Program-made: the position numbers and the translations under genes
Notes under the pieces: generated by a model
Databases searched by the model: none
What the model saw: only the letters and a program-made list of their open reading frames with translations
Told to the model about the DNA's origin: nothing
Origin: a virus
Taxonomy: Duplodnaviria > Caudoviricetes
Length of the DNA stretch: 64,000 bases
Virus record (IMG/VR): IMGVR_UViG_3300034061_001472
Coordinates: 1,127 to 65,126 of that record
Strand: one strand, 5' to 3'
In this document: piece after piece, positions 2,164 to 27,265 of the stretch
Layout of the letters: the number at the start of each line of letters is the position of its first letter
Position numbering within the stretch: the first letter of the stretch is position 1

Positions 2164-5142
<2,979 letters not shown>

Positions 5143-5153
5143 GGCTAAATACT

Positions 5154-5202
5154 TAGCAAGAAAGCTGCCCGTCTTCCTATGAAGGCGGGCAGTTTTTTGC
5201 TA
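5154..5202 (+). terminator. Rho-independent terminator
   Basis: Stem CTGCCCGTCTTC-ctat-GAAGGCGGGCAG (5165-5192) followed by TTTTTT, just after the stop at 5142. Confidence 0.85.
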
Positions 5203-5273
5203 GATAAAAATAAGTAAAAAGCTACATTTTATAGTATAGTATGCCTATACATTAGTTGTAATGAGAGAGACTT

Positions 5274-5990
5274 ATGCCTATTGACTTTCCTAACAGCCCA
5301 TCGGTTAACGATGAGTTTACGTCTGGGTCTACGACCTGGCGCTGGGATGGCACTGTCTGGAAGGTCGTTCGCGACTTTGCTCCAGCAGGTGCAACTGGCG
5401 CAGTTGGTGAAACTGGCGCACAAGGTAACACAGGCTTAACTGGTGTAACTGGTGCAGTTGGTAACACCGGTGCAAACGGAAACACAGGTATGACTGGCGC
5501 AACAGGTGTAACTGGTGCTCAAGGCAATACTGGAGCAACTGGCGAAACTGGTGCAATTGGAAACACAGGTGCACAAGGTAACACAGGTCTAACTGGTAAC
5601 ACAGGTGCAATTGGAAACACAGGTGCACAAGGTAACACAGGTCTAACTGGTAACACAGGTGCAACTGGCGCTGCAGGCGCGATCCTTGCAATAAACAACA
5701 ACACAGGAACAAGCTACACCCTGCAACTAACAGATCTTAATGACCTTGTAACTTTGAACAACGCCAGTGCGATAACACTTACCGTGCCTCCTTCAGTTTT
5801 TAGTCCAAATGACGTTGTTAACATCACACAGATTGGGGCAGGACAGGTTACGTTTGCTCAGGGGGCAGGAGTTACGATAATCTCAACCGGGGCAACTGCC
5901 TCGGCTCCTAAGCTAAGAGCGCAGTACTCAGCAGCCTCAGTCATATGCACAGCAAGTAACACTTTTTTAATAGTAGGCGACGTTTCTTAG
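5274..5990 (+). CDS. Short collagen-like fibre protein, paralogue of 2164..5142
   Basis: Same N-terminal (IDFPN.PSV...[13 protein letters not shown]) and C-terminal (YTL.L.DLN.LV.LNNA...GAGQVT...LRAQ.S...GD) domains around a short collagen region. Confidence 0.88.
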
Positions 5991-6081
5991 CGCACTTATA
6001 CCGCTGTTTATAGAGTAAACGGCGCCGCGCCACTAACTGCTTACGGTCGTAGTGCTGCTGGCGCGTGTACGCATTGTTACG

Positions 6082-6090
6082 TGTTATAAT
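6082..6090 (+). promoter_or_regulatory. Extended -10 promoter TGTTATAAT
   Basis: Perfect TGnTATAAT, 46 nt upstream of the small ORF at 6137. Confidence 0.55.
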
Positions 6091-6136
6091 ACTACCATCG
6101 TAAAATCTTACGTGTAAAGATAAGAAGGTATAAGAC

Positions 6137-6247
6137 ATGCTTGCAGTATACATGGTAGTCGCGCTGGGCCTTAGCTCATTGGTGTATTTGATCATAGAGT
6201 CGAATATAGAAGATAGACGTAATAGACGCAATAGACAAAATCTCTGA
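6137..6247 (+). CDS. Small 36-aa single-pass membrane peptide (MLAVYMVVALGLSSLVYLIIESNIEDRRNRRNRQNL); not in the ORF track
   Basis: ATG 6137 to TGA 6247, AAGAAGGT RBS-like sequence, own -10 element, hydrophobic N-half and basic tail. Confidence 0.55.
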   Translation: MLAVYMVVALGLSSLVYLIIESNIEDRRNRRNRQNL

Positions 6248-6280
6248 TAGGTGCCATAAGGTTACTTTTTCAGCATGACG

Positions 6281-6289
6281 TGATAGAAT
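6281..6289 (+). promoter_or_regulatory. Extended -10 TGATAGAAT; probable leaderless transcript for the GT operon
   Basis: -10 hexamer ends 6 nt before ATG 6296; no SD sequence. Confidence 0.5.
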
Positions 6290-6295
6290 AATTAA

Positions 6296-7351
6296 ATGTT
6301 TAGAATGTCCTTATACGCACAGCCGCACGTTAGAGCGTCTGGGTCATACTATGGATATGCGTACACGTATCAAGAAATAGCAAAGCATTTAAGGCAGTAT
6401 ACACACGACGGTAAGCAAATAAATATTGATATAAACTCTCCTAAATCTAAATTGCAGCTTTACTACGGGTCTCCACATGGATTTTTTTATGATCATCAGT
6501 ACAAAATACAAATGACCCAGTGGGAATCAACGTTAGTGCCGCCTCACTGGGTTGATCATGCAAAAAGCTATGATGAGTGGTGGACTGCAAATAGATTTGG
6601 CGCAGACGCTTTTATAAACGCCGGTGTTCCAGCAGAAAAAGTACATATATTTGAGCACGGTGTCGATGCGTCGCTCTGGACGCCAAAAAAGCGAGGAACA
6701 AAAGACACTGTAAGATTCTTGCATATAGATTCTGGGTCTCCAAGAAAAAGAGGTTCTTTAGCTGTGGAGGCGTTTAAAGCTGCATTTGGAAATAACTTTG
6801 ACTATGAAATTACACTAAAGTATAGTCACCATGCTGCATCTAAGCAGGACTGGTTTGACGAAAAAATTTTAGAGAGTCATGGAGAGTGGGAAAGCATAAA
6901 TGTTCGTCATATAAAAGAAAATATGACAATAGAGCATTTAATTAGTTTATATCATTTTCATGACATTTTAATATATCCTTCAGAAGGAGAAGGATTTGGT
7001 TTAATACCTTTACAGGCGCTAGCTACAGGAATGCCAGTTATATCAACATCAAGATGGTGCAGCTACGATCAGTACTTTAATGATAACATCATAGAATCTC
7101 ATGAAGGAATTTCAGACGTTGTCGAAACATATACTAGGCACGGTAATGTTGTTATACCTCACTTAGACTCCATGATCGAGCTTATGAAAAAAGCCGCAAG
7201 CAACATTGAAAGTCAGTCCGAACAATTCTACAATCAGGTGCCAGATGTAACCAGTAAGTATGACTGGCAAAAACTAACTAATTCTGCCATGGATAGTTTA
7301 ATATCAAGAGTAGGTATTGGCATGTTTGAGAATTCTGGCTATTTTAAATGA
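6296..7351 (+). CDS. Glycosyltransferase, GT-B fold (GT4-like)
   Basis: HGVD, RK pair (PRKRG) and YPSEGEGFGLIPLQALATGMPVI signature. Confidence 0.9.
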   Translation: MFRMSLYAQPHVRASGSYYGYAYTYQEIAKHLRQYTHDGKQINIDINSPKSKLQLYYGSPHGFFYDHQYKIQMTQWESTLVPPHWVDHAKSYDEWWTANRFGADAFINAGVPAEKVHIFEHGVDASLWTPKKRGTKDTVRFLHIDSGSPRKRGSLAVEAFKAAFGNNFDYEITLKYSHHAASKQDWFDEKILESHGEWESINVRHIKENMTIEHLISLYHFHDILIYPSEGEGFGLIPLQALATGMPVISTSRWCSYDQYFNDNIIESHEGISDVVETYTRHGNVVIPHLDSMIELMKKAASNIESQSEQFYNQVPDVTSKYDWQKLTNSAMDSLISRVGIGMFENSGYFK

Positions 7352-8034
7352 AATACACGATAATGCATGTCAACGATCGTGCAAAGGACAACATGGAGTA
7401 TAACAAGCTAGTTTTAAAAGACTTTGACTACATAGATGATATAGAGTTTTTTAATGGAAACGTAGGCAATGCCTTTGACGTTCTCGATCGCATGGGGATT
7501 AGATTAAATGTTTGGAGTCCTTATGATGGAAGATCGTTTGCGCCTTTGCCAGGAGAGTACGGAGTCTGGGTTAGCACGATTAGAACCTGGCAGTATATTG
7601 TAGAAAATAAGATAGACTCGATGCTAGTGCTAGAAGATGACATTCTATTAGAAGAAAGTTTTGTAAATAATTTGAGTAGCTGTGTAGGCCAATTGCCAGA
7701 AGACTATGATTTTATTTCACTTTACTATTTTGAAGGGCAAAATGATGTAGATAATAATACAGATTTTGGTGCTAAAAATATACATAGATCATTAAATCAG
7801 TACTCGGCTGGTCAGGCAACATTGTATTCTTACTATGGCGCTAAAAAATTATTAAAATTAGTTTCTAGGCATGGAATTGAGTACACTACTGACTGTTTTA
7901 TATTTAATAAGTCGCAGAAAGGTTTAATAAGCGGATACTCGATAAAACCAAATGATTTAAGTTTTTTAAAGCATGACTATAAAAACATCAAATCTTTGAT
8001 TGATACAGAAAATATTAGAAATGTTGAAATGTAA
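7348..8034 (+). CDS. Glycosyltransferase family 25-like
   Basis: GEYGVWVS and LVLEDD motifs; YSYYGAKKLL. Confidence 0.8.
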   Translation: MKYTIMHVNDRAKDNMEYNKLVLKDFDYIDDIEFFNGNVGNAFDVLDRMGIRLNVWSPYDGRSFAPLPGEYGVWVSTIRTWQYIVENKIDSMLVLEDDILLEESFVNNLSSCVGQLPEDYDFISLYYFEGQNDVDNNTDFGAKNIHRSLNQYSAGQATLYSYYGAKKLLKLVSRHGIEYTTDCFIFNKSQKGLISGYSIKPNDLSFLKHDYKNIKSLIDTENIRNVEM

Positions 8035-11869: not shown

Positions 11870-12210
11870 TCTGCGGTTACCTCTACCCAGGTGATGGAAA
11901 AGACTTGATCAACTACGTCGCCTTCGCGAGTTTCGCCTTCTTCATCGCAGGCAAGCAGATCTGTGTCGCCATCTACTTCTCCTGCGTAGCCATACGCAAC
12001 GTAGGCAGACTCTAAAAATTGAAAGCCTTTTCCTAACGAGACTGATATTCCATCTCGTTGTAGGGCAGAAGCAAGAGCGCGGCGGATAAGTTCGTTCTCT
12101 AGATCAATATGATCATCGGTAAAAAATACTATAGAGTCGTCGTTAAGCTGCTCGTAACCGTCTCCGGTCCATTCTTTCCACAGAAGTTCGCCTATACGCG
12201 AGTCTTTCAC
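11866..12210 (-). CDS. Hypothetical acidic protein, 114 aa
   Basis: GGGGAG RBS then GTG; stop overlaps the whiB start. Confidence 0.7.
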   Translation of the reverse strand: MKDSRIGELLWKEWTGDGYEQLNDDSIVFFTDDHIDLENELIRRALASALQRDGISVSLGKGFQFLESAYVAYGYAGEVDGDTDLLACDEEGETREGDVVDQVFSITWVEVTAE

Positions 12211-12347
12211 TGTCTCCCCTTACGCCGCCGTATGAGGAATATTACACTGGAAAGTCAGCCATTGCGCGGATAAACGCAGATTATTTTAGAGTAATAAATT
12301 ACCTAAGGCTAGGTGTGAAAGTGTCTCTAAGAGTCACTGAGCAATGC

Positions 12348-12875
12348 CTACATATTGTTGTAGGTGCCTAGCTGCAAGACCCCGTTGACATCAGGCCATA
12401 GGTACTGATAGTACTCAGGACGATAACCTTTATCCTCTGGCCAGTTAAACTGAGAGTACCAGTCGTACTCTTTGCGTAGTAAAGCAATGCGGTGGGTAGA
12501 GGCAATTTGCTCGTACGTGTCTTTGTCTTTAAACCAGTAAGGAAAGGTAAGCTCGTCGCTGATACGCCCTAGCTCAAGCGCGCGGACTAGTGTTCCTTGA
12601 ATCTTAGGAATCATTGTAGATTTGTAACCACGAGCTAGCCACTCGTCACACATCGTAGTTGCGTATATAGATAAAGCTTTTTCGTGACCTTCCCACATCT
12701 TTGCCGCAGGATGATTGCGCCAGCCTTTAGGGTCACGGTGTTCGCCCTGTGGATTTAGCGAGGTGAGTACTAGCATAAGTTGCCATGCCTCAAGGACCTG
12801 CTTATTAAGGCGCTTGTTGTCTAGTTCTTGAGCAATACGCTCAAAGGAATCAGTATGAGGTACAAATGTTTGCAT
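12348..12875 (-). CDS. Pyrimidine-dimer DNA glycosylase/endonuclease V-like protein (MSMEG_6728 family)
   Basis: MQTFVP...LDNKRLNKQ.LEA.Q...GWRNHPA.KMW.G...EW..RGY...HR..LLRK...Y...Y.WP. Confidence 0.85.
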   Translation of the reverse strand: MQTFVPHTDSFERIAQELDNKRLNKQVLEAWQLMLVLTSLNPQGEHRDPKGWRNHPAAKMWEGHEKALSIYATTMCDEWLARGYKSTMIPKIQGTLVRALELGRISDELTFPYWFKDKDTYEQIASTHRIALLRKEYDWYSQFNWPEDKGYRPEYYQYLWPDVNGVLQLGTYNNM

Positions 12876-12901
12876 GTATTCGTCCGTTCGTCATTGTGTA
12901 A

Positions 12902-12910
12902 ATTATATCA
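12902..12910 (-). promoter_or_regulatory. Extended -10 promoter TGATATAAT
   Basis: Perfect TGnTATAAT on the - strand, upstream of 12875. Confidence 0.55.
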
Positions 12911-13222
12911 GGCTGGATTGTCCTCGGGCGGTATTTCATCAAAAGGAAGAACGTTTTCTTCGTCCATGTCCATTTCCATATCCATGTCAGGTTCTTCAAT
13001 GTCATCAGCCGATACGTATATGCCTACTACTGTAACCTTGCTGCATATAAAGCATTCGCAGACCGTTCCTGGCGACAATTTTATAGGTACGTTTACGCTA
13101 ACTAACCGCGTCAGAATGTTCCCTTCCATATCTACACTTTCGGGTTCCCACACGCTATTTTCTTCGATCCAGCACCGTTCACAAAGCGGAACAAGATCAT
13201 CGTTGTAGTCGCGTATGCTCAT
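12908..13222 (-). CDS. Hypothetical Zn-finger protein with acidic tail
   Basis: CERC...CECFIC; D/E-rich C terminus; start overlaps the stop of the MTase-like gene. Confidence 0.7.
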   Translation of the reverse strand: MSIRDYNDDLVPLCERCWIEENSVWEPESVDMEGNILTRLVSVNVPIKLSPGTVCECFICSKVTVVGIYVSADDIEEPDMDMEMDMDEENVLPFDEIPPEDNPA

Positions 13223-14484
13223 TTAGCGGTAGTCTCCATAGGGCTACTGTACCACTTATTCTTAGCGTAGTGTCTGGAGAATCCTTTGTCAGCGTCAATA
13301 AGATATTCACGATCTCCGATTAACTCCGCGTCCGGGCCTTGTGGGTTACCGTCAAGTGAGTCCTTAATCGCCTTTCCAATCCAATTTGCAGCTTGCACTG
13401 GAACAGCCTTGCCCCATACAGCCGCAAGGTGTGAGTAGTCGCGTGAGTCTTCAATATTCCAGTCATCAGGAAGACCTTGCATACGAGCAGACTCACGGTG
13501 CGTGATAAGTCGTGGTTGGGTTGGGTGCACTACGTGATCTAATGCAGAGCCGGTAAGCACGTTGCACCAATGATCTTCTTTCCAGCGGTACGGTTGCGAG
13601 AAGCCCAGCTTAAATTCCTTGCGAATAACACGAGGAGAAATATCAATCCATTTCTGTGGAAAATTACCATCATTTAAGTCTACGGCTTTCTTTAGCGCAC
13701 TACCAGTATCGCCATTGCCTTCCCAGCCATCATTGCCGATGATGCTAAAGATCTCTTCTATACGCTGAGCATGTATGTTTGATTTGCCAATGTGGCCGTC
13801 AACTAATCCATTTTTTGTACGTAGATGCGTAACGTACTTTGATGGAGACGGCGTGGTGTACTTTTGCTTATTCCAAGTCTGAGGCATCTCTGCAAGATCA
13901 CCTATGATGTCCATTATACGTGGAAGTTCTTTAGGCTCGGTGATTGGAGTTGAAAACTTAAGGCCAGACTCAATAGCAACCCAGAAGTAACGTGGGCGAT
14001 ACGAAAATCCACCAACCTGCAGGTTGTTTTCCTTAACGTGGTATAGATCGTATTTTTTACCGGAGACCTGCTCGACCATGTCGCGATACTTAACCATTAC
14101 GTCGCGCCCCTGGGTGTATGCCTGCTGAACGCACTCGAAAACAATAGCGCGTGGTTTTACCCGTCCAGCATATTTCATAAAGGCTACGGTATGCTCGTGC
14201 GCCTTAGAGTCAGGTCCACGATTCGCAGGACCAGACCATACTGACCAGCCTGAGCAAGGAGGACAACCCATAACTACATCAGCTTTTTGTACGCGCCATT
14301 CGCTAGGGTCGTCGGAAAATTCTGCAGTCCAGTCGTTCCCAAGAAGATGACGGTTGTTTTCAGCTACAACATTTCCAAAGTTTAATGTACCAGTGCGTTG
14401 AATCATCTTCATATCGTTCTGCACAAAGCCAAGACTCATAAACGCTGCAAGGCCGTTACAGTCAATAAAGGTATGTTGCGACAT
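13219..14484 (-). CDS. Divergent C5-cytosine DNA methyltransferase homologue (atypical cofactor pocket)
   Basis: Motif IV GCPPCSGWS, motif VI FECV, motif VIII RPRYFWVA, motif IX RLITHRESARMQGLPDDW, motif X WGKAVP; motif I is IDCNGLAAFMSLGF rather than FxGxGG. Confidence 0.85.
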   Translation of the reverse strand: MSQHTFIDCNGLAAFMSLGFVQNDMKMIQRTGTLNFGNVVAENNRHLLGNDWTAEFSDDPSEWRVQKADVVMGCPPCSGWSVWSGPANRGPDSKAHEHTVAFMKYAGRVKPRAIVFECVQQAYTQGRDVMVKYRDMVEQVSGKKYDLYHVKENNLQVGGFSYRPRYFWVAIESGLKFSTPITEPKELPRIMDIIGDLAEMPQTWNKQKYTTPSPSKYVTHLRTKNGLVDGHIGKSNIHAQRIEEIFSIIGNDGWEGNGDTGSALKKAVDLNDGNFPQKWIDISPRVIRKEFKLGFSQPYRWKEDHWCNVLTGSALDHVVHPTQPRLITHRESARMQGLPDDWNIEDSRDYSHLAAVWGKAVPVQAANWIGKAIKDSLDGNPQGPDAELIGDREYLIDADKGFSRHYAKNKWYSSPMETTAK

Positions 14485-14547
14485 CGAGCTACCTTTCGTA
14501 GTTCCTAGGGTAGGACCTTATACCGACATCAAGTAGCTGGCGTGCTT

Positions 14548-14871
14548 TTACGCAGAAAGATTAGCTTTTTTCTCTAATTCAATCATCCCGACTTCGTACC
14601 CACATCCGGCATACCCTGCAATATCAATCCAAGTATCTGCTTGGAATCCAGATTTTGACGCGTAACGTGCAACTTTAAGGCCAACCATCATCATTCCAAC
14701 ATCTTCATTTGATATCGTAGTGCCAAGTATGACGGACCAGATCTTTGCAATTCGTTCAAAGTTTTCTTCTGGCCCCCCGTACTGCACGTCTCTATCGCCA
14801 GAGATAATTTTTGCAGCCTCGCGTAAAGCTTCTACGCGATATTGCAGAGGATCACCAGGTGACTCAGCCAT
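14548..14871 (-). CDS. DUF6378-like phage protein (nucleotide-metabolism associated)
   Basis: L.EA..II.GDR...YG.PEENF.RIA.IWS...MM..LKVAR...D.WIDIAGYA. Confidence 0.75.
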   Translation of the reverse strand: MAESPGDPLQYRVEALREAAKIISGDRDVQYGGPEENFERIAKIWSVILGTTISNEDVGMMMVGLKVARYASKSGFQADTWIDIAGYAGCGYEVGMIELEKKANLSA

Positions 14872-15082
14872 TCTTACCCTCTATCTTTGTGCGGATAGTT
14901 ACATACGCAATTAAGACTCCGTCGTTATTTGGATCTTCACTAAAGTCTCTAGCCTTAAGCTCAGAGTCAGGCGGTAGCTCCGCAGAATCGTTATTTACAA
15001 AGCCTTGCCAGCTTTTCTTTGCGTTAGCAAGAATTTCATCGATGTTTCTTCCTCGGACTATAAGTTCTACGGTAGATCGCAT
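14864..15082 (-). CDS. Hypothetical protein, 72 aa
   Basis: Translationally coupled to both neighbours. Confidence 0.65.
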   Translation of the reverse strand: MRSTVELIVRGRNIDEILANAKKSWQGFVNNDSAELPPDSELKARDFSEDPNNDGVLIAYVTIRTKIEGKNG

Positions 15083-15501
15083 TAACGGACTCTTTTCTCT
15101 AGTTGGTGCGGTGAGTAATGTGCGCCGTCTAAGATAGGTTCTTTATCATCTGTAGACTTAAATATAATGTCGCCATAACGGATTCCTACAACCTTACCGC
15201 GTCTCCCGTTATGAATAGCGCCAGTTGCGCCGTCATAAGCGCTAGCTTTAACACGCACTTCGTCGCCTAAAGTAATTGCGCCCGGTTGAGCGTCAGTCCA
15301 TAGTTCATCAGGATTATTTTTTACTGCAGCATGTCCGAGAGAAAGACGGCTAAATAGCGCTATAACTTCTTTCTGCTGGTTCACCGACAAGGTAAGATCT
15401 TTCCAAGTTGCAAGAAGTTTAAGTGTAGCGTTGCCTATGCCTACTTTAGTCTTTGCATCTTGCATCTCAGATCTAACCCACTCATCATTAACTTCAGGCA
15501 C
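15082..15501 (-). CDS. Hypothetical protein with C-terminal SH3/KOW-like domain
   Basis: AAGGAGGT RBS; LGDEVRV...NGRRGKVVGIRYGDIIF. Confidence 0.65.
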   Translation of the reverse strand: MPEVNDEWVRSEMQDAKTKVGIGNATLKLLATWKDLTLSVNQQKEVIALFSRLSLGHAAVKNNPDELWTDAQPGAITLGDEVRVKASAYDGATGAIHNGRRGKVVGIRYGDIIFKSTDDKEPILDGAHYSPHQLEKRVR

Positions 15502-15979
15502 TGTAGTCTACCTCCTTAGGTAAGCACTTCGAGCACATGTCCGGGCTAGCGCCTCTACCAACGTCGTCGATAGCTCTAGTGCACAGAGAACATTTTACGC
15601 CTTCTTCTTTAACTTTGTACCCTTTTAGCTGTCTTTCTTTATTGCGTTCCATTTTCTCAACGTAAAACTTATTGAGCATCTCGTCTGTTCCACCCGCCGC
15701 AACGATGATATTTGCGACAAAATGTAGAACATCAACAGCTTCCTTAATTACTTCTTCACGGTCCGCGTAAGGGGCATCGTGCTGCCAAGGCTTCCACGAG
15801 ATTGCCTGGCGCATCTCTGCAAGTTCATCGTCTACCGCTAGCATATTCCAACGTAGATACTCTACAAACCTGCGAATGTTCTGAGGCTTATCGCCTTCCA
15901 TTTCTTCGTAGTTAATAAAGTATACGTCTTTTTGCAATTCACGGGTACGTTTTAACCAAGAATCAAATAAAATAGACAT
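15494..15979 (-). CDS. Dimeric all-alpha dUTPase/dCTPase (MazG-like superfamily) with C-terminal Cys4
   Basis: DELAEM...WKPW...KEAVDVLHF...Y.EK..RN..RQ..GY; CSLC...CSKC. Confidence 0.82.
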   Translation of the reverse strand: MSILFDSWLKRTRELQKDVYFINYEEMEGDKPQNIRRFVEYLRWNMLAVDDELAEMRQAISWKPWQHDAPYADREEVIKEAVDVLHFVANIIVAAGGTDEMLNKFYVEKMERNKERQLKGYKVKEEGVKCSLCTRAIDDVGRGASPDMCSKCLPKEVDYSA

Positions 15980-15980
15980 G

Positions 15981-17000
15981 CTATCCTTTCTTAGAATATA
16001 GTTTAAGAGCGCTAGATAGCGCTATTGCCGCGTCAGTGCGTGTAGGTATTGCGTCTGTGTATTCCTTGCGTTGATCTTTAGCTAGTGTATTTCTTTCTTC
16101 CTGCGACATATCTTCTATCCTTGAAGCCAAGTGCGCCCATGAGCTGCCTATCGCGCTGCTTTCACGCCAGTCGGTTGCTACGGGAGTTAACGTGTTGATA
16201 CATTGTATAAGTCTGTACGACCACCATGTGCCGTTTAAGTGTGGACTAAATAGCGCGCCTACACCTGCGGCAATCTGGCTCTCTACCTGCGCGTCTGTCC
16301 AGCCCTTGTGCCACTTCATAGGAACGGTCGGCCTTTGTAATGTTGCGGTAGTTGACTTTACCCATGATGAAGAATAATTTTCTACTACCCACTTTTCACG
16401 GCGCTCTAGTTCTATAACGTCTTGATTATTTATAAGATAAGAATCTAAGCTTATAGGAACCAAAGAAGACGCAGCGCCTGCCGGTAGCTGAGCTGCTACT
16501 CTATCTTTATCCTGCCATGGAAGTGAAGGATACAGTGTAGTTGGCCACTCTTTAGTAAGTAGATGCTCTACTATGTCTAATAAGTTTTGAAGCATGTTTG
16601 GCTGCGAAGCCGTGTCGTAGCCTTTGCGATACGAGTAAAAAGGCTTAGTTAGGTTGTCTGGGGTCTTAATAATTGCACGAAGACTAGACGTAATACGGTT
16701 AGGCTCTGGTGCATCTAAGAAAAGTACAAGTTTATCAGTGTCAAGTAGCACGTCTATTACGCTAAGTGCACCGTAGACTCTATTAGCGCTTAAGCTTGTT
16801 AGAGGACTTAGCCCGACTAAGACAGAGTCGTATTGATCTAAATCTTTAGTGTTCCATGAGACTTCAGGATCCAACTGTACTACTTCATGTCCTTGAAGAA
16901 CTAGAACTGTCCGTATAACACTTGCAAATGACGCAGATCTAGCATTTGCAGATTCTGACGCATGAGAAGCAGACATGCCGGTTATAAGAATCTTGCTCAT
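15981..17000 (-). CDS. Putative DNA glycosyltransferase-like protein (GT-B), paralogue of 16997..18214
   Basis: N-terminal Rossmann-like KILITG; L.PL.SL...GAL; WW..R motif shared with its neighbour; sits in the nucleotide-modification cluster. Confidence 0.55.
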   Translation of the reverse strand: MSKILITGMSASHASESANARSASFASVIRTVLVLQGHEVVQLDPEVSWNTKDLDQYDSVLVGLSPLTSLSANRVYGALSVIDVLLDTDKLVLFLDAPEPNRITSSLRAIIKTPDNLTKPFYSYRKGYDTASQPNMLQNLLDIVEHLLTKEWPTTLYPSLPWQDKDRVAAQLPAGAASSLVPISLDSYLINNQDVIELERREKWVVENYSSSWVKSTTATLQRPTVPMKWHKGWTDAQVESQIAAGVGALFSPHLNGTWWSYRLIQCINTLTPVATDWRESSAIGSSWAHLASRIEDMSQEERNTLAKDQRKEYTDAIPTRTDAAIALSSALKLYSKKG

Positions 17001-18214
17001 GCCAAAGTCCCATCTGCGTTACGCTTAACACCTTTATCCTCGGCTACCGCGCGTTCAATGATGCGATTACAGTGCTCTACAAACGCAGAGTATTCTGGGA
17101 TATACGGAGCAAGTGCAGTGCGTTGTGCCATGGCTGCTTCGTGTAGCTCTGTATCAGACATCTTCTCAACGTCGGTAATCTTTAGCTTATACGCATCACC
17201 AAGTGAATCGCCTTCGCCTTTGTCGGTTACAAGAATAGAACCCACATGCGCTGCGTATAGGAAGCGACTACGCCACCAGCCGGACCCCGCGTGTGGATAC
17301 GGTGGAGAAAGAATTCCCCAGTGATGATTGTAAAACTCGAGGACGTCTTGTTCGGTGTCAAAACGTTGTCCACCAAGTTTTTTAATAAGCTTACGACTGC
17401 CTACAATTTCAACTGGCCAGTCTGGATCTTTCTTTTCTAACCAAGTATCATGCGGCATAAGAGCGCCAAGTACCCACGAGCGCTTCTTGCTTGCTGAAGA
17501 CAGAGGCACGACAGGTTGAAGTGTTGGAATAATCGTAGCGGTAGGGTCTAGAGCTTCAATAGGGCCAACTTCATCAGGCATACGCTTACGTACGCTAGAT
17601 CTATCTCCAAAAGCGTACATAGGGCACACTGGAACCATACCAGCAGCCCATCGATCAGCAAGTAAGTCACGCGCAGCTTCAACTAATCTTTTTTCATACG
17701 GCTTAATGTTTTCATCGTTGTCCATCATGTAGTAGCGCTCGATGTAGCACTTTTTTGCTGCCGCAGGATTTAATTCTTTGACTCGCTCGAGCGCTGCCTC
17801 GATATCTGCACGACTAAAGTACGTTGCGCCTTCTTCACCGCGATGTTCTGTGCCTACAAGCAGATGCTTATATAGCATCTCAGGTTTACGAATTAAAGCG
17901 CGTGCGCCGTTGAATACTGTGTTAAACTGCCAATCATCAAAGAATCCTACACAAGGAATACCAGATGACAAAGCGTACAGTGCGCCCATTGCCCCTTGGC
18001 GGCCGTTTAACGAGTTAAGTGGTGCAAGGTTTATCCACAGTACATCGTAGCTAGAAAGATCTTCGCCTGGAGTAACTTTACGCCAGTCAACATCATGCCC
18101 AGCTTCACGTAGCGCTTTAGCAATAGACGCAGGCACGTCAATCTTCTGTATTGTGCGTTTTTCTGTGTTGATTTGCAACGCAGTGAACCCACTCATTAGA
18201 ACCTTCATGTCCAC
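16997..18214 (-). CDS. Putative DNA glycosyltransferase-like protein (GT-B)
   Basis: KVLMSG...LREAGHDVDWR...APLNSL...GALYAL...FFDDW...EQDVLEFY...PPYPHAGSGWWRSRF. Confidence 0.6.
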   Translation of the reverse strand: MDMKVLMSGFTALQINTEKRTIQKIDVPASIAKALREAGHDVDWRKVTPGEDLSSYDVLWINLAPLNSLNGRQGAMGALYALSSGIPCVGFFDDWQFNTVFNGARALIRKPEMLYKHLLVGTEHRGEEGATYFSRADIEAALERVKELNPAAAKKCYIERYYMMDNDENIKPYEKRLVEAARDLLADRWAAGMVPVCPMYAFGDRSSVRKRMPDEVGPIEALDPTATIIPTLQPVVPLSSASKKRSWVLGALMPHDTWLEKKDPDWPVEIVGSRKLIKKLGGQRFDTEQDVLEFYNHHWGILSPPYPHAGSGWWRSRFLYAAHVGSILVTDKGEGDSLGDAYKLKITDVEKMSDTELHEAAMAQRTALAPYIPEYSAFVEHCNRIIERAVAEDKGVKRNADGTLA

Positions 18215-22928: not shown

Positions 22929-24760
22929 CGATACTTTTCTCCCCAGTTCTCCATAGGTCCGTCAATTCCAGAAGTTAAAGGCACAGCCCAACCTTCGGTA
23001 GTAGTCATACATTGTTTTACAATTTTCATGATTTCCTGCGCGTCCTTGCGCGGTGCGTTAAGCACAATTTCATCGTGCACCGGAACGATTAGTAATTCAG
23101 TTAATTCTGCCTGATCTAGCTTTATTAAGTTAGACTTAAATACCTCAGCAGCTCCACCTTGAATTAAATAGTTAACAAGCGTGTACACTCGGTCTTCGTC
23201 GCAAGGTAAACGTCTACCAGTCCATGTGTACACGTAACCTTGGCCTTCTGCCTTAAGTCTGCGCATACCGGCGTCTTCAATTTGTTTTTGAAAGAGCGAC
23301 ATACCAGGGAAGCGCATGTCAAACGCATCTGAAACAGTTCTCATCTGGCCTTCTGCTACACCAGCTGTAAGCGCTTGTTTTGCGACGCCTGCGCCGTAGA
23401 GACGACCGTAGACAGTTCCTTTGATGAGATTACGACGCTTGTCCGACCGTTGCATCGTAGGGTCGTTGTAGATTTCACGACCAATTTCAGTGAACGGATC
23501 TGACCCTGTCGCATCTGCACGGTTAAAGAGTGTGATGAGGTTTGGGTCTTGTGAGAGGGATGCGAACATTCTAAATTCGACCTGGTCAAGGTCACTTGTG
23601 ATGATGACATGATCTTCGTCCTTTGGGATAAAAGCAGTACGGACTGTATCGTCACCCTTAGGCAAAGTCTGCAGCGCTGGATTTTGTATTGACATACGAC
23701 TTGTTCGTGCGCCAAGTGTCTTTACAGACGGGTGCACGAAACCATTTACGTTGTCATTGATAAAGTTTGCAAAGTACGTGTTAGCAAGCTTGTCTGCCTT
23801 GCGTTGTTTAAGTACTATCTCAGCAAGTTCTTTTACCTCGGAGTTACCTGAAATCGCTAAGAATTGTAGCTGATCTTTAGACGCGGACTTTTGACCCGAA
23901 GGTGTAAACTCGTTAATCTCTGCACCAAGAGATTCTAGCAAGCGCACTAGTTGAATGTTACTAGTTATAGAAACGCCAGCATACTTTTGCTGCGCCCACG
24001 ACTTAACTTGCTCCGTGTAGGAAGTAAGCTCATCAAACTTCTTTCTAGAGTAGTCTAGGTCAATGCGCGCGCCATTGAGCTCCATACGCGTAACAATGCG
24101 GCGAGTCTGCATTTCAAGCTCGTACGCTTTGTGGTAGGGCTGTCCTGGACCGCACTTCTCGTAAAACTGTTCCCATAAGCGCATAGTTAAGATGCAGTCT
24201 AACGCACCGTATGACCAGTAAGGTTGAAAATTAGTAGGAACAGTTCCCCATGTCCAACCGTTCTTGACAAGCTCTTCATCAAGTGTACCTTGCAACGCAA
24301 CCGCGCGGCCGTCAACGTGCAGAGCAGCAAGACGCTTAAGTGCGCCTGTGCCAAGTGGATCTATGATGTGCGCCATAATCATTGTGTCGTGCACTCTGTG
24401 CCAAGGTATTTTCCAACGCGACTGTATATCAAACCAGCGAGCTTCAAAAGCTACGTTATGGCAAACGATAGGTCCATCAAACTTATCCATAGCCTCATAG
24501 AAAACTCCGGCCCATTCGTCCCACGGCATAGCCCAGGACTGTTTACCATCGCCAACTTGAACTAAACGCAGTCTGCCGTGCCACGGTGATAGCGCATGGT
24601 CACGTGGGTTACCTGGAAGTTCTCCAGTTTCAGTGTCAATTGCAACCGCGTTATGAGGTCGTCGTTCACCTAGCCAAGTTATAAACTCGCCTGCCTTTTC
24701 TACGCTGTCAATTAAGTGAAGCTGAACTCCTTCTAAGTTATCAACCATTAGCTTCCTCAA
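22925..24760 (-). CDS. polA: DNA polymerase family A with 3'-5' exonuclease (likely start ATG 24748)
   Basis: Exo IDTETG, HN..FE, Y.ALD; TSRMS..NP.LQ; motif A DLDQVEFR; motif B RNLIKGTVYGRLYG; motif C VHDE. Confidence 0.95.
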   Translation of the reverse strand: MRKLMVDNLEGVQLHLIDSVEKAGEFITWLGERRPHNAVAIDTETGELPGNPRDHALSPWHGRLRLVQVGDGKQSWAMPWDEWAGVFYEAMDKFDGPIVCHNVAFEARWFDIQSRWKIPWHRVHDTMIMAHIIDPLGTGALKRLAALHVDGRAVALQGTLDEELVKNGWTWGTVPTNFQPYWSYGALDCILTMRLWEQFYEKCGPGQPYHKAYELEMQTRRIVTRMELNGARIDLDYSRKKFDELTSYTEQVKSWAQQKYAGVSITSNIQLVRLLESLGAEINEFTPSGQKSASKDQLQFLAISGNSEVKELAEIVLKQRKADKLANTYFANFINDNVNGFVHPSVKTLGARTSRMSIQNPALQTLPKGDDTVRTAFIPKDEDHVIITSDLDQVEFRMFASLSQDPNLITLFNRADATGSDPFTEIGREIYNDPTMQRSDKRRNLIKGTVYGRLYGAGVAKQALTAGVAEGQMRTVSDAFDMRFPGMSLFQKQIEDAGMRRLKAEGQGYVYTWTGRRLPCDEDRVYTLVNYLIQGGAAEVFKSNLIKLDQAELTELLIVPVHDEIVLNAPRKDAQEIMKIVKQCMTTTEGWAVPLTSGIDGPMENWGEKYR

Positions 24761-25220
24761 ATATCGTCATTTCAATGTTGCACTTAATAAAGTACTCCAT
24801 AACTTTTTCTGGCTGTCTATGCTCGGCCTTTGATTGTATACGCATAACAACTCTAGACACACCAGAGTTAGAAACTAACTTCGCGCATTGCATACACGCA
24901 GCGTCTGTTATGTATATTGTTCCGCCTTCAGTACGAGATCTATCAACGTACAGTAACGCGTTTGCCTCCGCGTGTATAGATGGGCACGCATCATACATGT
25001 TGTCTAGTGGCGCAGTGCCTTGCGCACGTGGGCACCAGTTAATACATTCGCCTTCGTTTGGAAAAGATGCAGCTGGACCGTTGTAACCAGTAGAGCTTAC
25101 GCGTTGGTCTTTAGAGACTACAACCGCGCCAATTTGAGCGCGGCTACAGCGAGAACGCAGAGCTATAGTATCCGCAACCTGCATCCAGACTTCATCCCAC
25201 GATGGGCGAGTGTTCGTCAT
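24741..25220 (-). CDS. dCMP deaminase (ComEB-like)
   Basis: RS.C.R..GAVVV...TGYNG...HAEANAL...ACMQCAK. Confidence 0.92.
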   Translation of the reverse strand: MTNTRPSWDEVWMQVADTIALRSRCSRAQIGAVVVSKDQRVSSTGYNGPAASFPNEGECINWCPRAQGTAPLDNMYDACPSIHAEANALLYVDRSRTEGGTIYITDAACMQCAKLVSNSGVSRVVMRIQSKAEHRQPEKVMEYFIKCNIEMTIFEEANG

Positions 25221-25402
25221 TCTGATAAGTCTCCCATACCTTCTGTTACCGATGCGGCAAGTACTTTTGCAACTAACGAAAGAGCTTCCTTACGAGAAAA
25301 CCCTGCGCTTTTTAGCTCTTCAAACAGCTCATGAAGTTGGACTACCGCACTTCTCAGAGGGCTTTCATCTTCTTCGTACTTATCTATACTGTCGTTACCC
25401 AT
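25217..25402 (-). CDS. Hypothetical protein, 61 aa
   Basis: Overlaps both neighbours; ELF.EL..AGFS..EAL.LV helix motif common in phages. Confidence 0.7.
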   Translation of the reverse strand: MGNDSIDKYEEDESPLRSAVVQLHELFEELKSAGFSRKEALSLVAKVLAASVTEGMGDLSE

Positions 25403-26264
25403 TTGTCTTTGCCTCGTTCTTTTTAATAGCGGTAATCATCGCACGAGCGTACCAGCCTTCAAACGGGTGAAGGCTATTCACTAACATAGGCTCTTCAATA
25501 TGCATTGCGGCGCTTAATGAAGACAGTGCGCGATCTTGAACTTGTCGCCAATTAAAACCTGTTATTGCAGGGATATCTTCGTAAGGCTCAGTCGTATACT
25601 TTAAGCTTTCAGCTGCATCGTAGTGCTGTTCATAGATATGAAGAGATCCGACATGGTGCGTATATGAACCAGGGGCAATTCCTAAAACAGACGCTACTGC
25701 AATTTGCACTCGTGTAAATTGGAAGAAGTCGTACGCTGCTCCTAGCCATACGTCATTTGAGCGCATGTAAACACTCATATTAAGCTTGTTGTCACGAATT
25801 CTAAACTGATGAAGAATCGTGCAAGGGTAATCGCGCTTCTCCGGCAAAAGATCTAGGACTGGGTCCCATATAGTGACAACAGCCTGTCGTGAGTCTGGGT
25901 CGTTCTTTAAACGCTCGATGATCGGTCCGTATTGATCTTGCGTGCGTGCGCCGTATGCTCCATGAAACATTCCGTTGTCTTCAGCGTAGTTCTTAAACAT
26001 TGGACCTACTGCGACAACAAGTTTAGGAGTTGCAGCACCCGCAAGCAGCTGACAGGCTTCAACCGCACCGATACCTGGGACAGTCCCACGCCCTACGCCT
26101 AAAGGCAGTGTGTGCTTAATATCTTCAATGCGAATAACTGCATCTTCAATTTCACGCGTCTTCATTCCACGAGGAGCTGCCTCCCTGCCGTGCTTTAGAA
26201 CGTGCTGAACAAGGTCAACGTATCCGTTAACAGCGTCAGGTATGTTGATTATCGCAGTATCCAT
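25395..26264 (-). CDS. Thymidylate-synthase-family enzyme with dCMP-type specificity residue (probable dCMP hydroxymethylase)
   Basis: GAYG.R, DSRQAV..IW, PCT..HQF, MRSNDVWLGAAYD (Asp where ThyA has Asn), GSLHIY. Confidence 0.85.
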   Translation of the reverse strand: MDTAIINIPDAVNGYVDLVQHVLKHGREAAPRGMKTREIEDAVIRIEDIKHTLPLGVGRGTVPGIGAVEACQLLAGAATPKLVVAVGPMFKNYAEDNGMFHGAYGARTQDQYGPIIERLKNDPDSRQAVVTIWDPVLDLLPEKRDYPCTILHQFRIRDNKLNMSVYMRSNDVWLGAAYDFFQFTRVQIAVASVLGIAPGSYTHHVGSLHIYEQHYDAAESLKYTTEPYEDIPAITGFNWRQVQDRALSSLSAAMHIEEPMLVNSLHPFEGWYARAMITAIKKNEAKTNG

Positions 26265-27265
26265 GGATCATCCTTATCTTTTTTCGTAGATAGACGTGTA
26301 ATAGCTTGGCCATACTCTTCTTTTTTAGAGTTAAAAAATCGACGTACGTGTTGCGGGTGTGAAGTTACGGTGTATAGGTAGTCAGGGATATTTGCATGGC
26401 GTATTCCACGTTCTGCAAGCCGTCCTAGAGCTACAACTGGTGGACGGCGTAACGTACACCATAGATCCTCAAAACGTTCTGAAGACATATCGTTTACATT
26501 AACTATACCCATAGTCTTCCACTTATCAGATTCGAGAGCTGTAAGCAAATACTCGCCGGAGTTGCCGTCAACAGGCATGAAAGGAAGAATAGTTTCCTCG
26601 CCATATTTTTTAGTGATATTTCTTGTGTCACCTACAAGTAACACCCTTGGAAAACGTGGTCCGATGTACTCCGGAAACCTAGCAAGTTCCTGCGCGTCAT
26701 CTTGTATGGCATCAGCTCTGTTAATAATATGTGAAGCAAGATGTCCGATAGAATCTAGTGAGTCAGGTGCAGGAGTTAGACGTCCCGCCAGTCCCGCTGA
26801 CATCGCCGCAGCAACTTCGTATAGACCTAAGATTTGTTCTAGCTCGTTTGCCTGTACGTAATCGTCACCGCGAGCGTTTAGACGACGAGTAATAACATCA
26901 AGAGGTTGATACAACCAAAATTGAGCAACACCGCGTGATTGAAGGAAGAGCTCTGTCCAACGCCAACCAGCTTTACCAAGGAGACCATATCCATCGCCAG
27001 AACCCGTCTCAGGGCGTTTTACCGCGGCGTAAGTTACCTCGCCCCAGTGCCAACGGTCTGCAACAGCTATGCGTTTTGACCAGTCAATATTTTCAATAGA
27101 CGTGACGTAATCCTGTAGGACCCAACGGCGAGTCATCTCATCAGGCTTAGACTTATGGTAAAACTCGATTTCTTTTTTAGGAAACTTTTCAGCAAGTTGT
27201 TTTTGGACTTCAGACACGAGTGTAGACTTGCCTGAGGCGTCTGTACCTTCGATTACTATAAACAT
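26249..27265 (-). CDS. P-loop dNMP (thymidylate-like) kinase fused to a uracil-DNA-glycosylase-like domain
   Basis: IEGTDASGKST, DRW...E..Y, RL..RGDD; C-terminal LLVGD...PF...SG.YL...VVALG..A...HP. Confidence 0.8.
   Translation of the reverse strand: MFIVIEGTDASGKSTLVSEVQKQLAEKFPKKEIEFYHKSKPDEMTRRWVLQDYVTSIENIDWSKRIAVADRWHWGEVTYAAVKRPETGSGDGYGLLGKAGWRWTELFLQSRGVAQFWLYQPLDVITRRLNARGDDYVQANELEQILGLYEVAAAMSAGLAGRLTPAPDSLDSIGHLASHIINRADAIQDDAQELARFPEYIGPRFPRVLLVGDTRNITKKYGEETILPFMPVDGNSGEYLLTALESDKWKTMGIVNVNDMSSERFEDLWCTLRRPPVVALGRLAERGIRHANIPDYLYTVTSHPQHVRRFFNSKKEEYGQAITRLSTKKDKDDPWILR

Follow-up and report, generated by a model that had tools for sequence, protein, structure and literature searches.

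A lysine-type C5-cytosine-methyltransferase-fold enzyme of actinophages and its possible action on 5-hydroxymethylcytosine

What would an enzyme with the fold of a C5-cytosine methyltransferase do in a phage when the otherwise invariant asparagine of its motif X is a lysine? The question is raised by a gene within a stretch of 64,000 nucleotides (positions 1,127 to 65,126; hereafter the window) of the IMG/VR virus record IMGVR_UViG_3300034061_001472, a 65-kb record estimated to be 50% complete. The gene is an intact open reading frame (ORF) on the minus strand, 13219..14484, running from ATG to TGA and encoding 421 amino acids as read from its translation, and its product is named MT-K here for Lys-type C5-cytosine-methyltransferase-fold enzyme. 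MT-K is proposed, tentatively and with a confidence that stops somewhat short of probable, to be an enzyme independent of S-adenosylmethionine (SAM) whose target is the C5 side chain of 5-hydroxymethylcytosine (5hmC) in phage DNA. The broader claim, that its function involves neither methyl transfer nor carboxy-S-adenosylmethionine (Cx-SAM) and is linked to a 5hmC pathway, is judged from the gene content and motifs described below to be probable.

A first-pass annotation of the window, made from its letters, had called MT-K a C5-methyltransferase homologue, and this assignment was borne out. The protein matches the Pfam family DNA_methylase (PF00145) with an E-value of 9.5e-21 and 75 bits (cut-off 22) and PHROG 116, 'DNA methyltransferase', with 1.8e-31. 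An AlphaFold2 (AF2) model built with 40 family sequences as input reached a mean predicted local distance difference test (pLDDT) score of 94.5, and it superimposed on DNMT1 with a Z score of 30.5 (VIA) and a root-mean-square deviation of 2.9 Å over 352 residues; further fold matches were the methylase of prophage CP-933R (3G7U; Z 29.5), M.HaeIII (Z 28.8) and M.HhaI (Z 26.6). Both parts of the PF00145 fold, a Rossmann-type catalytic domain and a target-recognition domain, are present, the latter resembling that of DNMT1/MET1 in a profile alignment (domain score 59 bits), and in the ESM Atlas only virus clusters described as 'C-5 cytosine-specific DNA methylase' were matched. The similarity of MT-K to the C5-cytosine methyltransferases is far beyond chance. 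The gene and its motifs are as follows.

13219..14484, minus strand: MT-K, Lys-type C5-cytosine-methyltransferase-fold enzyme (Pfam PF00145, AF2 model, fold matches)
14440..14463, minus strand: DCNGLAAF (residues 8-15) of the motif I equivalent IDCNGLAAF (residues 7-15; profile alignment to M.HaeIII)
14374..14397, minus strand: loop after strand 2, RTGTLNFG (residues 30-37), with Gly32 replacing the motif-II Glu and a basic position 30 (alignment to ANEY of HaeIII)
14242..14268, minus strand: motif IV, GCPPCSGWS (residues 73-81), with the catalytic nucleophile Cys77 and Ser78 for the usual Gln (HMMER alignment)
14128..14139, minus strand: motif VI, FECV (residues 116-119), with Glu117 kept and the Asn of ENV replaced by Cys118 (HMMER alignment)
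13990..13998, minus strand: motif VIII, R-P-R in YRPRY, Arg163 and Arg165 (alignment and family conservation)
13396..13416, minus strand: motif X, WGKAVPV (residues 357-363), with Lys359 for the invariant Asn (HMMER alignments)
13294..13320, minus strand: family-specific C-terminal motif IGDREYLID (residues 389-397), past motif X and modelled as a beta hairpin (family alignment, AF2 model)

Residue equivalence to M.HaeIII and MET1 was taken from HMMER alignments, not by eye. The catalytic residues of the superfamily (the Pro-Cys pair, the Glu of motif VI and RxR) are all retained, and Cys77, Glu117 and Arg163/Arg165 align to those of M.HaeIII, so that the annotation's description of GCPPCSG, the motif VI Glu and RxR as intact holds. 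The SAM-binding motif I of the superfamily (F-x-G-x-G-G) and the acidic residue of motif II are absent from MT-K, and motif X reads Gly-Lys in place of Gly-Asn. In the motif I alignment, D-C-N-G-L-A-A stands opposite S-L-F-S-G-A-G, which places Asn10 at the motif-I Phe and Leu12 at the first Gly of GxGG; Ser78 stands opposite the Gln of PPCQ in M.HaeIII. The motif I and motif X strings IDCNGLAAF and WGKAVP had been read from the letters together with a Lys codon at 13408-13410, and all were found at those places, the codon of Lys359 being AAG. That Lys359 is the equivalent of the motif-X Asn was confirmed by HMMER: WGKAVPV of MT-K aligns to IGNAVPV of M.HaeIII, and GKGVPV of the family profile aligns to GNAVPV of HaeIII and iGNAVP of Arabidopsis MET1.

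These substitutions are a property of a large family. Of 3606 candidates in a word-indexed search, 296 proteins passed E ≤ 1e-5, the close homologues having 62-94% identity among the 120 matches listed, and an exhaustive search of cluster representatives returned 865 at E ≤ 1e-3, of which 136 were at E ≤ 1e-30. Conservation was counted in a close-clade set (n = 121: the query plus all 120 listed close homologues, with at least 62% identity) and in a wide set (n = 127: the query, 123 representatives of at least 340 amino acids from clusters at 50% identity, and three named-phage proteins; 126 of 153 candidates, P0121-P0272 plus P0089, were kept, the 27 left out being shorter than 340 amino acids). 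Within the close clade Cys77, Ser78, Glu117, Arg163, Arg165 and Lys359 are each found in 121/121, as are R30, G32, L34, F36 and G37, and the strings DCNGLA(G/A)F and R-T-G-T-L-N-F-G-N are almost invariant. Across the wide set, position 359 is Lys in 121/127 (Arg in four, Ser in one, Gln in one), and the remaining residues are retained as Cys77 (122/127), Glu117 (126/127), Arg163 (124/127), Arg165 (127/127) and Ser78 (108/127). Position 118 is Ser in 118/127 and Cys in six (Ser or Cys in 124), position 30 is Lys or Arg in 111/127, and the C-terminal I-G-(D/E)-R-E motif that follows motif X is represented by G390 in 96/127 and E393 in 100/127. The residue preceding PPC varies (N in 78, T in 18, C in 14, V in 10 and S in two of the 127). 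Because Lys359 is present in 121/121 close and 121/127 distant relatives, together with the changes in motifs IV and VI, the altered motifs do not represent decay; random decay to a pseudo-enzyme, which the first-pass annotation had itself named as fatal to its reading, is excluded by this family-wide conservation. MT-K is thus judged, from these alignments, to be a working enzyme of a large subfamily with the C5-cytosine-methyltransferase fold.

Three side chains around C5 and the transferred methyl group are swapped family-wide, namely the Gln of motif IV to Ser, the Asn of motif VI to Ser or Cys, and the Asn of motif X to Lys. The donor pocket has also been rebuilt, with the motif-I Phe lost and position 30 basic, and in the clade of the window the ribose-binding Glu has gone as well. 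Two pocket subtypes were distinguished in the wide set: an aromatic position 12 with an acidic position 32 in 67 members, and Leu12 with a non-acidic position 32 in 34. The window protein belongs to the latter, and Lys359 is present in all rows of both. The 'rewritten SAM-binding loop' that had been noted thus stands in part: it is present, and invariant in the close clade, but it is partly clade-specific, the prevailing sequence in the wider family being D-[CV]-[QHN]-G-[FL]-[AG]-G-[GA], and the motif-II Glu, Gly32 in the window protein, is retained in 79/127.

The base on which such an enzyme might act is suggested by other genes of the window, among them the following three.

25395..26264, minus strand: thymidylate synthase (TS) homologue with a 5-hydroxymethyl-dCMP-synthase signature (Pfam TS 8.5e-29; PDB match MilA)
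24741..25220, minus strand: dCMP deaminase (Pfam dCMP_cyt_deam_1 4.6e-18)
26249..27265, minus strand: nucleotide kinase with a YorR-like N-terminal half (phmmer to YorR 2axp/3kb2, E 1.4e-4, residues 3-158; weak Pfam AAA_18)

The best solved-structure match of the TS homologue is the CMP hydroxymethylase MilA (E 3.7e-23), and alignments to MilA and TS place Asp179 at ThyA Asn177, Asp145 at Leu143 and Asp171 at Asp169. According to the available part of PMC13326640, N177D confers preference for dCMP, T4-like 5-hydroxymethyl-dCMP synthases and MilA typically have an acidic residue at L143, and D169N marks the 5-hydroxy-dCMP synthases. Since Asp is found at the N177 and L143 positions and D169 is retained, these rules give the window protein the signature of a 5-hydroxymethyl-dCMP synthase. 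A 5-hydroxycytosine synthase was considered and rejected, as its marker is Asn at ThyA D169 and Asp is retained here. A TS-family gene was found in 22 of 25 records with MT-K (10/10 plus 12/15), including 8/8 IMG/VR records that are at least 90% complete and 3/3 named phages; the three records without it are fragments estimated to be 24-40% complete. All 22 homologues have Asp at the N177 position, and the window protein and 12/12 others tested have it at L143 and D169 also, the L143 column being doubtful for L184, which is truncated by a contig end. In each of 11 complete relatives the Asp-type homologue is the sole TS-family gene found.

The kinase gene encodes 338 amino acids. It had been proposed to be a fusion of a deoxynucleoside monophosphate kinase with a uracil-DNA glycosylase (UDG), of which the kinase half is upheld by its match to YorR and the UDG half is left without any match, the C-terminal half of about 180 amino acids having no sequence match at all. 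The YorR structure 3kb2 is listed in the available part of PMC13326640 as the PDB match of the DLP3 nucleotide kinase. Domains of TS, dCMP deaminase and pyrophosphohydrolase co-occur, as reported in the part of PMC8670742 available, on contigs experimentally enriched for modified cytosine, and it is because of this co-occurrence that DNA containing 5hmC is considered likelier here than DNA containing 5-hydroxymethyluracil.

A pyrophosphatase and two putative glycosyltransferases are encoded closer to MT-K.

15494..15979, minus strand: MazG/dimeric-dUTPase-type NTP pyrophosphatase, a candidate dCTPase (Pfam dUTPase_2 1.1e-10)
16997..18214, minus strand: GT-B glycosyltransferase paralogue 1, 405 amino acids (AF2 model, Foldseek; no Pfam match)
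15981..17000, minus strand: GT-B glycosyltransferase paralogue 2, 339 amino acids (jackhmmer link to the 405-residue paralogue and to DSL-LC01 and GMA2 proteins)

The AF2 model of the 405-residue protein (pLDDT 77.7) has as its top Foldseek match the β-glucosyltransferase (BGT) of T4 (1qkj; E 3.4e-7, TM 0.47/0.53), with other GT-B enzymes close behind, and the 339-residue protein that completes this cassette is its paralogue, with 22% identity in the alignment. On distant actinophage contigs the gene order is PolA, SNF2 helicase, PD-(D/E)XK nuclease, AAA_24, DUF669, a variable cassette, a MazG/dUTPase_2-type pyrophosphatase and MT-K. The MazG-type gene is the commonest upstream neighbour of MT-K, lying no more than four genes upstream in at least 16 of 24 loci; with the greedy, length-based gene picking that was used, the upstream neighbour was not judgeable in the other eight. 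The variable cassettes, which may precede or follow MT-K, contain an RGP-type mutase, NAD epimerases, nucleotidyltransferases, HAD and SIS proteins, and large proteins without a Pfam family. Taken together, the phage carries the signatures of a T4-like pathway in which cytosine would be replaced with glycosylated 5hmC, and MT-K is a member of this predicted 5hmC/glycosylation gene set across distant actinophages. The annotation's alternative suggestion, that MT-K acts on 5hmC, fits this context, with an Asp/Asp-type TS homologue in 22/25 records and sugar and glycosyltransferase cassettes nearby.

A further connection is offered by P0250, a metagenome protein of 919 amino acids that joins MT-K to the helical domain of the 5-hydroxymethyl-dU DNA kinase (HMUDK; PF18723, E 5e-40), a single case that may tie the MT-K fold to enzymes acting on hydroxymethylpyrimidines in DNA. 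The HMUDK helical domain was not found in the five relatives searched. Among other fusions, a C-terminal FkbM-type methyltransferase domain is present in four family members, a Methyltransf_23 domain in three, and a winged-helix domain in one; all seven methyltransferase-domain fusions belong to the acidic-32 subtype. None of 26 long family members showed a fusion to a T4-BGT-like glycosyltransferase when compared by BLAST with the context genes. In the distant relative L086 (19385-20179), about 8 kb downstream of MT-K, a separate protein is homologous (38-40% identity) to the Methyltransf_23 domain present in the fusions P0197, P0206 and P0223. A family-profile search of proteins of 789-2250 amino acids gave nothing at E ≤ 1e-20, a weak result as the search of representatives already held five proteins of this length, and single-protein scans of viral contigs with P0250, P0225 and P0161 gave no relative.

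With the C5 of cytosine in the phage DNA predicted to be occupied, and with no source of Cx-SAM seen (discussed below), MT-K would most plausibly act independently of SAM on the side chain of 5hmC. The same predicted occupancy, together with a pocket around C5 that is enlarged and given the cation Lys359, makes 5hmC or a derivative the probable substrate. The proposed substrate would thus be the C5 side chain of 5hmC in the phage DNA, or of an activated or glycosylated form of it. The residues needed to attack C6 of a flipped-out cytosine covalently are retained as Cys77, Glu117, Arg163 and Arg165. Following the addition of Cys77 to C6, Lys359, situated beside C5-CH2-O, would serve as an acid or charge partner for the loss of the leaving group, and the resulting exocyclic methylene would then be trapped by a nucleophile sitting in the remodelled pocket. 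Related reactions by C5-methyltransferases, namely thiol coupling and aldehyde addition, have reportedly been described by the Klimasauskas laboratory, and Q82/N304 of M.HhaI have reportedly been engineered. In the available part of PMC11347137, C5-methyltransferases free of SAM are described as labilizing C5 substituents, with loss of the hydroxymethyl group of 5hmC among the examples. That MT-K should prove to be the first natural enzyme to rewrite 5hmC by a SAM-free C5-methyltransferase mechanism, with Lys359-aided loss of oxygen and coupling of a new nucleophile, is an attractive suggestion from its residues that is for now doubtful.

Several observations weigh against action on the 5hmC side chain. 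The presence of 5hmC in the phage DNA is itself predicted from sequence signatures alone, and the compared phages share a replication module, which means that co-occurrence was not counted over independent events. In the metagenome-assembled genome (MAG) G022, one of the 12 in the count of 12/15, the TS match and MT-K are on different contigs. In 9/11 complete relatives a deaminase gene is found close to the TS homologue, usually no more than about 2 kb away, and ThyX is present in 2/11; a route through 5-hydroxymethyl-dUMP that leaves cytosine unmodified is possible, and the deaminase could either feed host dTMP synthesis or convert 5-hydroxymethyl-dCMP to 5-hydroxymethyl-dUMP. No nucleophile-supplying gene was identified next to MT-K in the window. 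With regard to the family, the 67 of 127 members that keep both the acidic motif-II residue and the aromatic position 12 may still bind an adenosyl cofactor, the seven fusions to class-I SAM methyltransferase domains fit several readings, and the HMUDK fusion of P0250 is a single cluster representative that lacks a P-loop, no Walker A motif being visible.

Two of the rival explanations retain an adenosyl donor. MT-K could be an ordinary SAM-dependent 5-methylcytosine methyltransferase with unusual motifs, directed at host DNA or at a few unmodified cytosines of the phage; its fold and catalytic residues are canonical, Glu32, an aromatic position 12 and a Gly-Gly pair occur together in 67/127, and homologues are labelled 'methyltransferase' in public records. 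This is nonetheless quite improbable, given that the motif-X Asn is Lys throughout most of the family, at the very site where the engineered N374K variant of M.MpeI accepts Cx-SAM (PMC12783734, as available in part), that the motif-I Phe, the first loop Gly and the motif-II Glu are changed here and then invariant in the clade, that the family was not found in the searched cellular genomes beyond one MAG contig, and that the host phages are predicted to lack a free C5 in their own DNA. The alternative donor, Cx-SAM, was the lead taken up from the first-pass annotation. Substitutions that yield a carboxymethyltransferase are said to have been engineered by Wang and Kohli in 2021. A natural enzyme of this kind, CmoX of Synechococcus phage S-B43, was described in December 2025 (PMC12783734); according to the available part of that report, the motif-X position, Asn304 in M.HhaI, is Arg350 in CmoX and contacts the Cx-SAM carboxylate, Phe25, Glu47, Phe48 and Asp69 are kept on the adenosine, and the catalytic motif is SPPC, while a phage CmoA makes the donor and CmoY adds glycine, with 4257 CmoA sequences on the contigs of 5615 CmoX. 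A Lys-type analogue of CmoX that carboxymethylates the C5 of cytosine from host Cx-SAM would accord with a Lys at the site of the accepting N-to-K variants and of Arg350, and the basic residue at position 30 would be a further match for an anionic ligand. Set against this, CmoA (TIGR00740) was found in 0/25 records with MT-K, eight of them complete, and over the cut-off in 0/201 Actinomycetota genomes (best 151.8 bits versus a cut-off of 193.3), these being a sample of the phylum of the Coriobacteriia MAG introduced below with four unpublished genomes among them; a CmoY-type ligase of the Asn-synthetase type (PF00733), the one ligase family searched for, was likewise found in 0/25. The combination of R350 and SPPC that served as the search filter for CmoX in PMC12783734 is replaced in MT-K by Lys359 and GCPPC, Arg occurring at position 359 in only 4/127, and the CmoX contacts Phe25 and Glu47 correspond to Asn10 and Gly32 by our mapping through the M.HaeIII alignment. 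The CmoX structure 8YF3 ranks only 41st among the fold matches of MT-K (Z 23.8), below many canonical methyltransferases, and the family profile matches it with E 2.9e-13 versus 1.5e-23 for HaeIII. CmoX therefore does not look like a close relative, the basic motif-X residue appearing convergent, and Cx-SAM is unlikely to be the donor for MT-K; with C5 also predicted to be occupied in the phage DNA, the carboxymethylation of cytosine by MT-K is very improbable, and the lead was not sustained.

The two further explanations concern the substrate and catalysis itself. Aldehyde addition to cytosine and deamination by SAM-free C5-methyltransferases are known chemistry, and MT-K might act without SAM on unmodified cytosine, in host DNA or as residual cytosine of the phage, either adding a one-carbon unit (from formaldehyde or methylene-tetrahydrofolate) to form 5hmC after replication, or deaminating C to U and so marking cytosine-containing DNA for destruction. 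The complete cytosine-activation set is retained, the adjoining MazG-type enzyme (at least 16/24 loci) would exclude dCTP, and in the clade of the window a pyrimidine-dimer glycosylase/AP-lyase homologue is encoded two genes downstream. Plain cytosine would not, however, need the larger space at C5 created by the changes of Gln to Ser and Asn to Ser, hydroxymethylation after replication would repeat what the nucleotide-level pathway already does, the window has no confirmed UDG, and MT-K has no folate-binding signature, all of which make this course unlikely. It could be envisaged, finally, that MT-K is a non-catalytic or single-turnover DNA binder, whether a base-flipping reader of modified cytosine or a partner of the glycosyltransferases. 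The rebuilt donor pocket, a target-recognition domain like that of DNMT1/MET1, which reads a modified strand, and the glycosyltransferase cassettes, which adjoin MT-K and not the TS homologue, would be in keeping with such a role; a reader would have no need of an invariant Cys77, Glu117, Arg163 and Arg165 or of a strictly conserved Lys359, and the metagenome protein P0246 (752 amino acids) contains an intein (Hint_2, LAGLIDADG_3, Intein_splicing; residues ~79-400) beginning shortly after the PPC motif, inteins being usual, as a tendency only, in catalytically important proteins. A purely binding function is accordingly regarded as the most improbable.

Three more genes flank MT-K in the window.

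14548..14871, minus strand: DUF6378 protein between the MazG-type gene and MT-K (Pfam DUF6378 3.8e-29)
12908..13222, minus strand: Cys-rich ORF of 104 amino acids, its ATG overlapping the MT-K stop codon (ATGA)
12348-12875, minus strand: homologue of the pyrimidine-dimer DNA glycosylases (T4 endonuclease V family), two genes downstream of MT-K

The DUF6378 protein carries the PHROGs label 'phosphofructokinase', and homologues are situated elsewhere in the replication module of the distant relatives L088, L111 and L116. The ATGA overlap of the 104-residue ORF with MT-K suggests that the two may be translationally coupled; the ORF has two CxxC-like pairs and is kept only in the clade of the window (39-68% identity in six related contigs). 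The pyrimidine-dimer glycosylase homologue is also near MT-K in L131, L132, L086 and L089. In two loci the cassette adjoining MT-K (L109, 11126-15412; L124, ~5000-7926) includes an N-terminus which, by eye, seems to resemble that of an inositol-phosphate synthase, and a HAD protein, a P-loop protein and a small phosphatase-like ORF are also present; such cassettes hint that the donors for DNA modification might be polyols or other non-sugar compounds. Upstream of the homologue in Actinomycetia phage DSL-LC01 is a protein of 170 amino acids annotated as a 'class I SAM-dependent methyltransferase', for which no Pfam or NCBIfam match was obtained; it was considered as a CmoA and set aside, being not recognizable as one and having no counterpart at that position in the window.

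The family is, as far as searched, almost only found in viruses, a restriction that sets it apart from the methylases of restriction-modification systems. Homologues were found in Actinomycetia phage DSL-LC01 (66% identity), 13 Gordonia phage records (34-36%) and Micrococcus phage Kurnik (32%), the named-phage matches numbering 16 records in all with 15 spanning at least 80% of the query; a megablast search of the named phages with window positions 12000-16000 gave no match. A scan of prokaryotes with one genome per species (185,579 species) produced 90 pattern matches, one of which encodes a relative of MT-K, on a contig of 17.6 kb from a Coriobacteriia MAG. This same MAG was the only one of 301 genomes sampled from the Actinomycetota to match the family profile at E ≤ 1e-30.

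If the proposal is correct, common freshwater and soil actinophages would carry a DNA-modifying activity without a described natural counterpart, in which a methyltransferase fold has been repurposed for editing an already modified base. It would constitute an undescribed class of cytosine hypermodification in widespread actinobacterial phages, to be added to the known routes (a TS homologue with a glycosyl- or carbamoyl-transferase; methyltransferase, TET and glycosyltransferase; CmoA/CmoX/CmoY), and a natural precedent for SAM-free reactions of C5-methyltransferases seen so far only in vitro, besides possibly providing a new enzyme for the labelling or sequencing of 5hmC. Even as a Lys-type carboxymethyl- or alkyl-transferase, MT-K would represent a second, independent natural solution to non-methyl transfer. 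The activity could be categorically new; no paper on a natural Lys-type family or on 5hmC in actinophages was found in the literature covered, which excluded most subscription journals and supplements. The question is testable with cultured relatives, namely Gordonia phages GMA2, Sixama and GodonK and Micrococcus phage Kurnik.

Placed beside the systems already described, MT-K shares with the canonical C5-methyltransferases (M.HaeIII, 1DCT; M.HhaI; 3G7U; DNMT1/MET1) the fold, the Cys of PPC, the Glu of motif VI, RxR and motif IX, and differs from them in the swaps in motifs IV, VI and X, the changes in the Phe/Gly loop, the extra IG(D/E)RE motif, and its occurrence in phages predicted to be without a free cytosine C5. 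The engineered M.MpeI N374K and E. coli Dcm N436K have the same change of Asn to Lys in motif X as MT-K, made as a single substitution in an otherwise canonical SAM pocket, whereas at least four further conserved changes are present in the pocket of MT-K. CmoX is likewise a phage protein of this fold with a basic residue for the motif-X Asn, and its product, a non-methyl one, is a handle for hypermodification; unlike that of MT-K, and as far as the available part of PMC12783734 describes it, its gene is usually beside those of a phage CmoA and an amide ligase. The clusters of C5-methyltransferase, TET/5mYOX and glycosyltransferase genes (bioRxiv 10.1101/2023.12.21.572611, as available in part) resemble the MT-K loci in placing a gene of this fold beside variable glycosyltransferase and sugar cassettes, whereas in the MT-K phages a nucleotide-level TS homologue, not TET, is the predicted source of the hydroxymethyl group. 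Such a methyltransferase/TET/glycosyltransferase route was rejected for the window, since Tet_JBP (PF12851) was over its cut-off in 0/5 records searched; in one complete close relative (G005:C1:100746-100940) a weak Tet_JBP-like match of 16.9 bits (cut-off 34.9) was observed some 70 kb away from MT-K (locus at contig range 11461-32720). The T-even glucosyl-5hmC system comprises the gp42 dCMP hydroxymethylase, the gp1 kinase, the gp56 dCTPase, the cd deaminase and α- and β-glucosyltransferases, for which the window has counterparts by signature or fold in the Asp/Asp TS homologue, the YorR-like kinase, the MazG-type pyrophosphatase, the dCMP deaminase and the two BGT-like GT-B proteins. To our knowledge, T4 has no component with the C5-methyltransferase fold, and it is as an extra conserved member, compared with the T-even system, that MT-K distinguishes the actinophage version.

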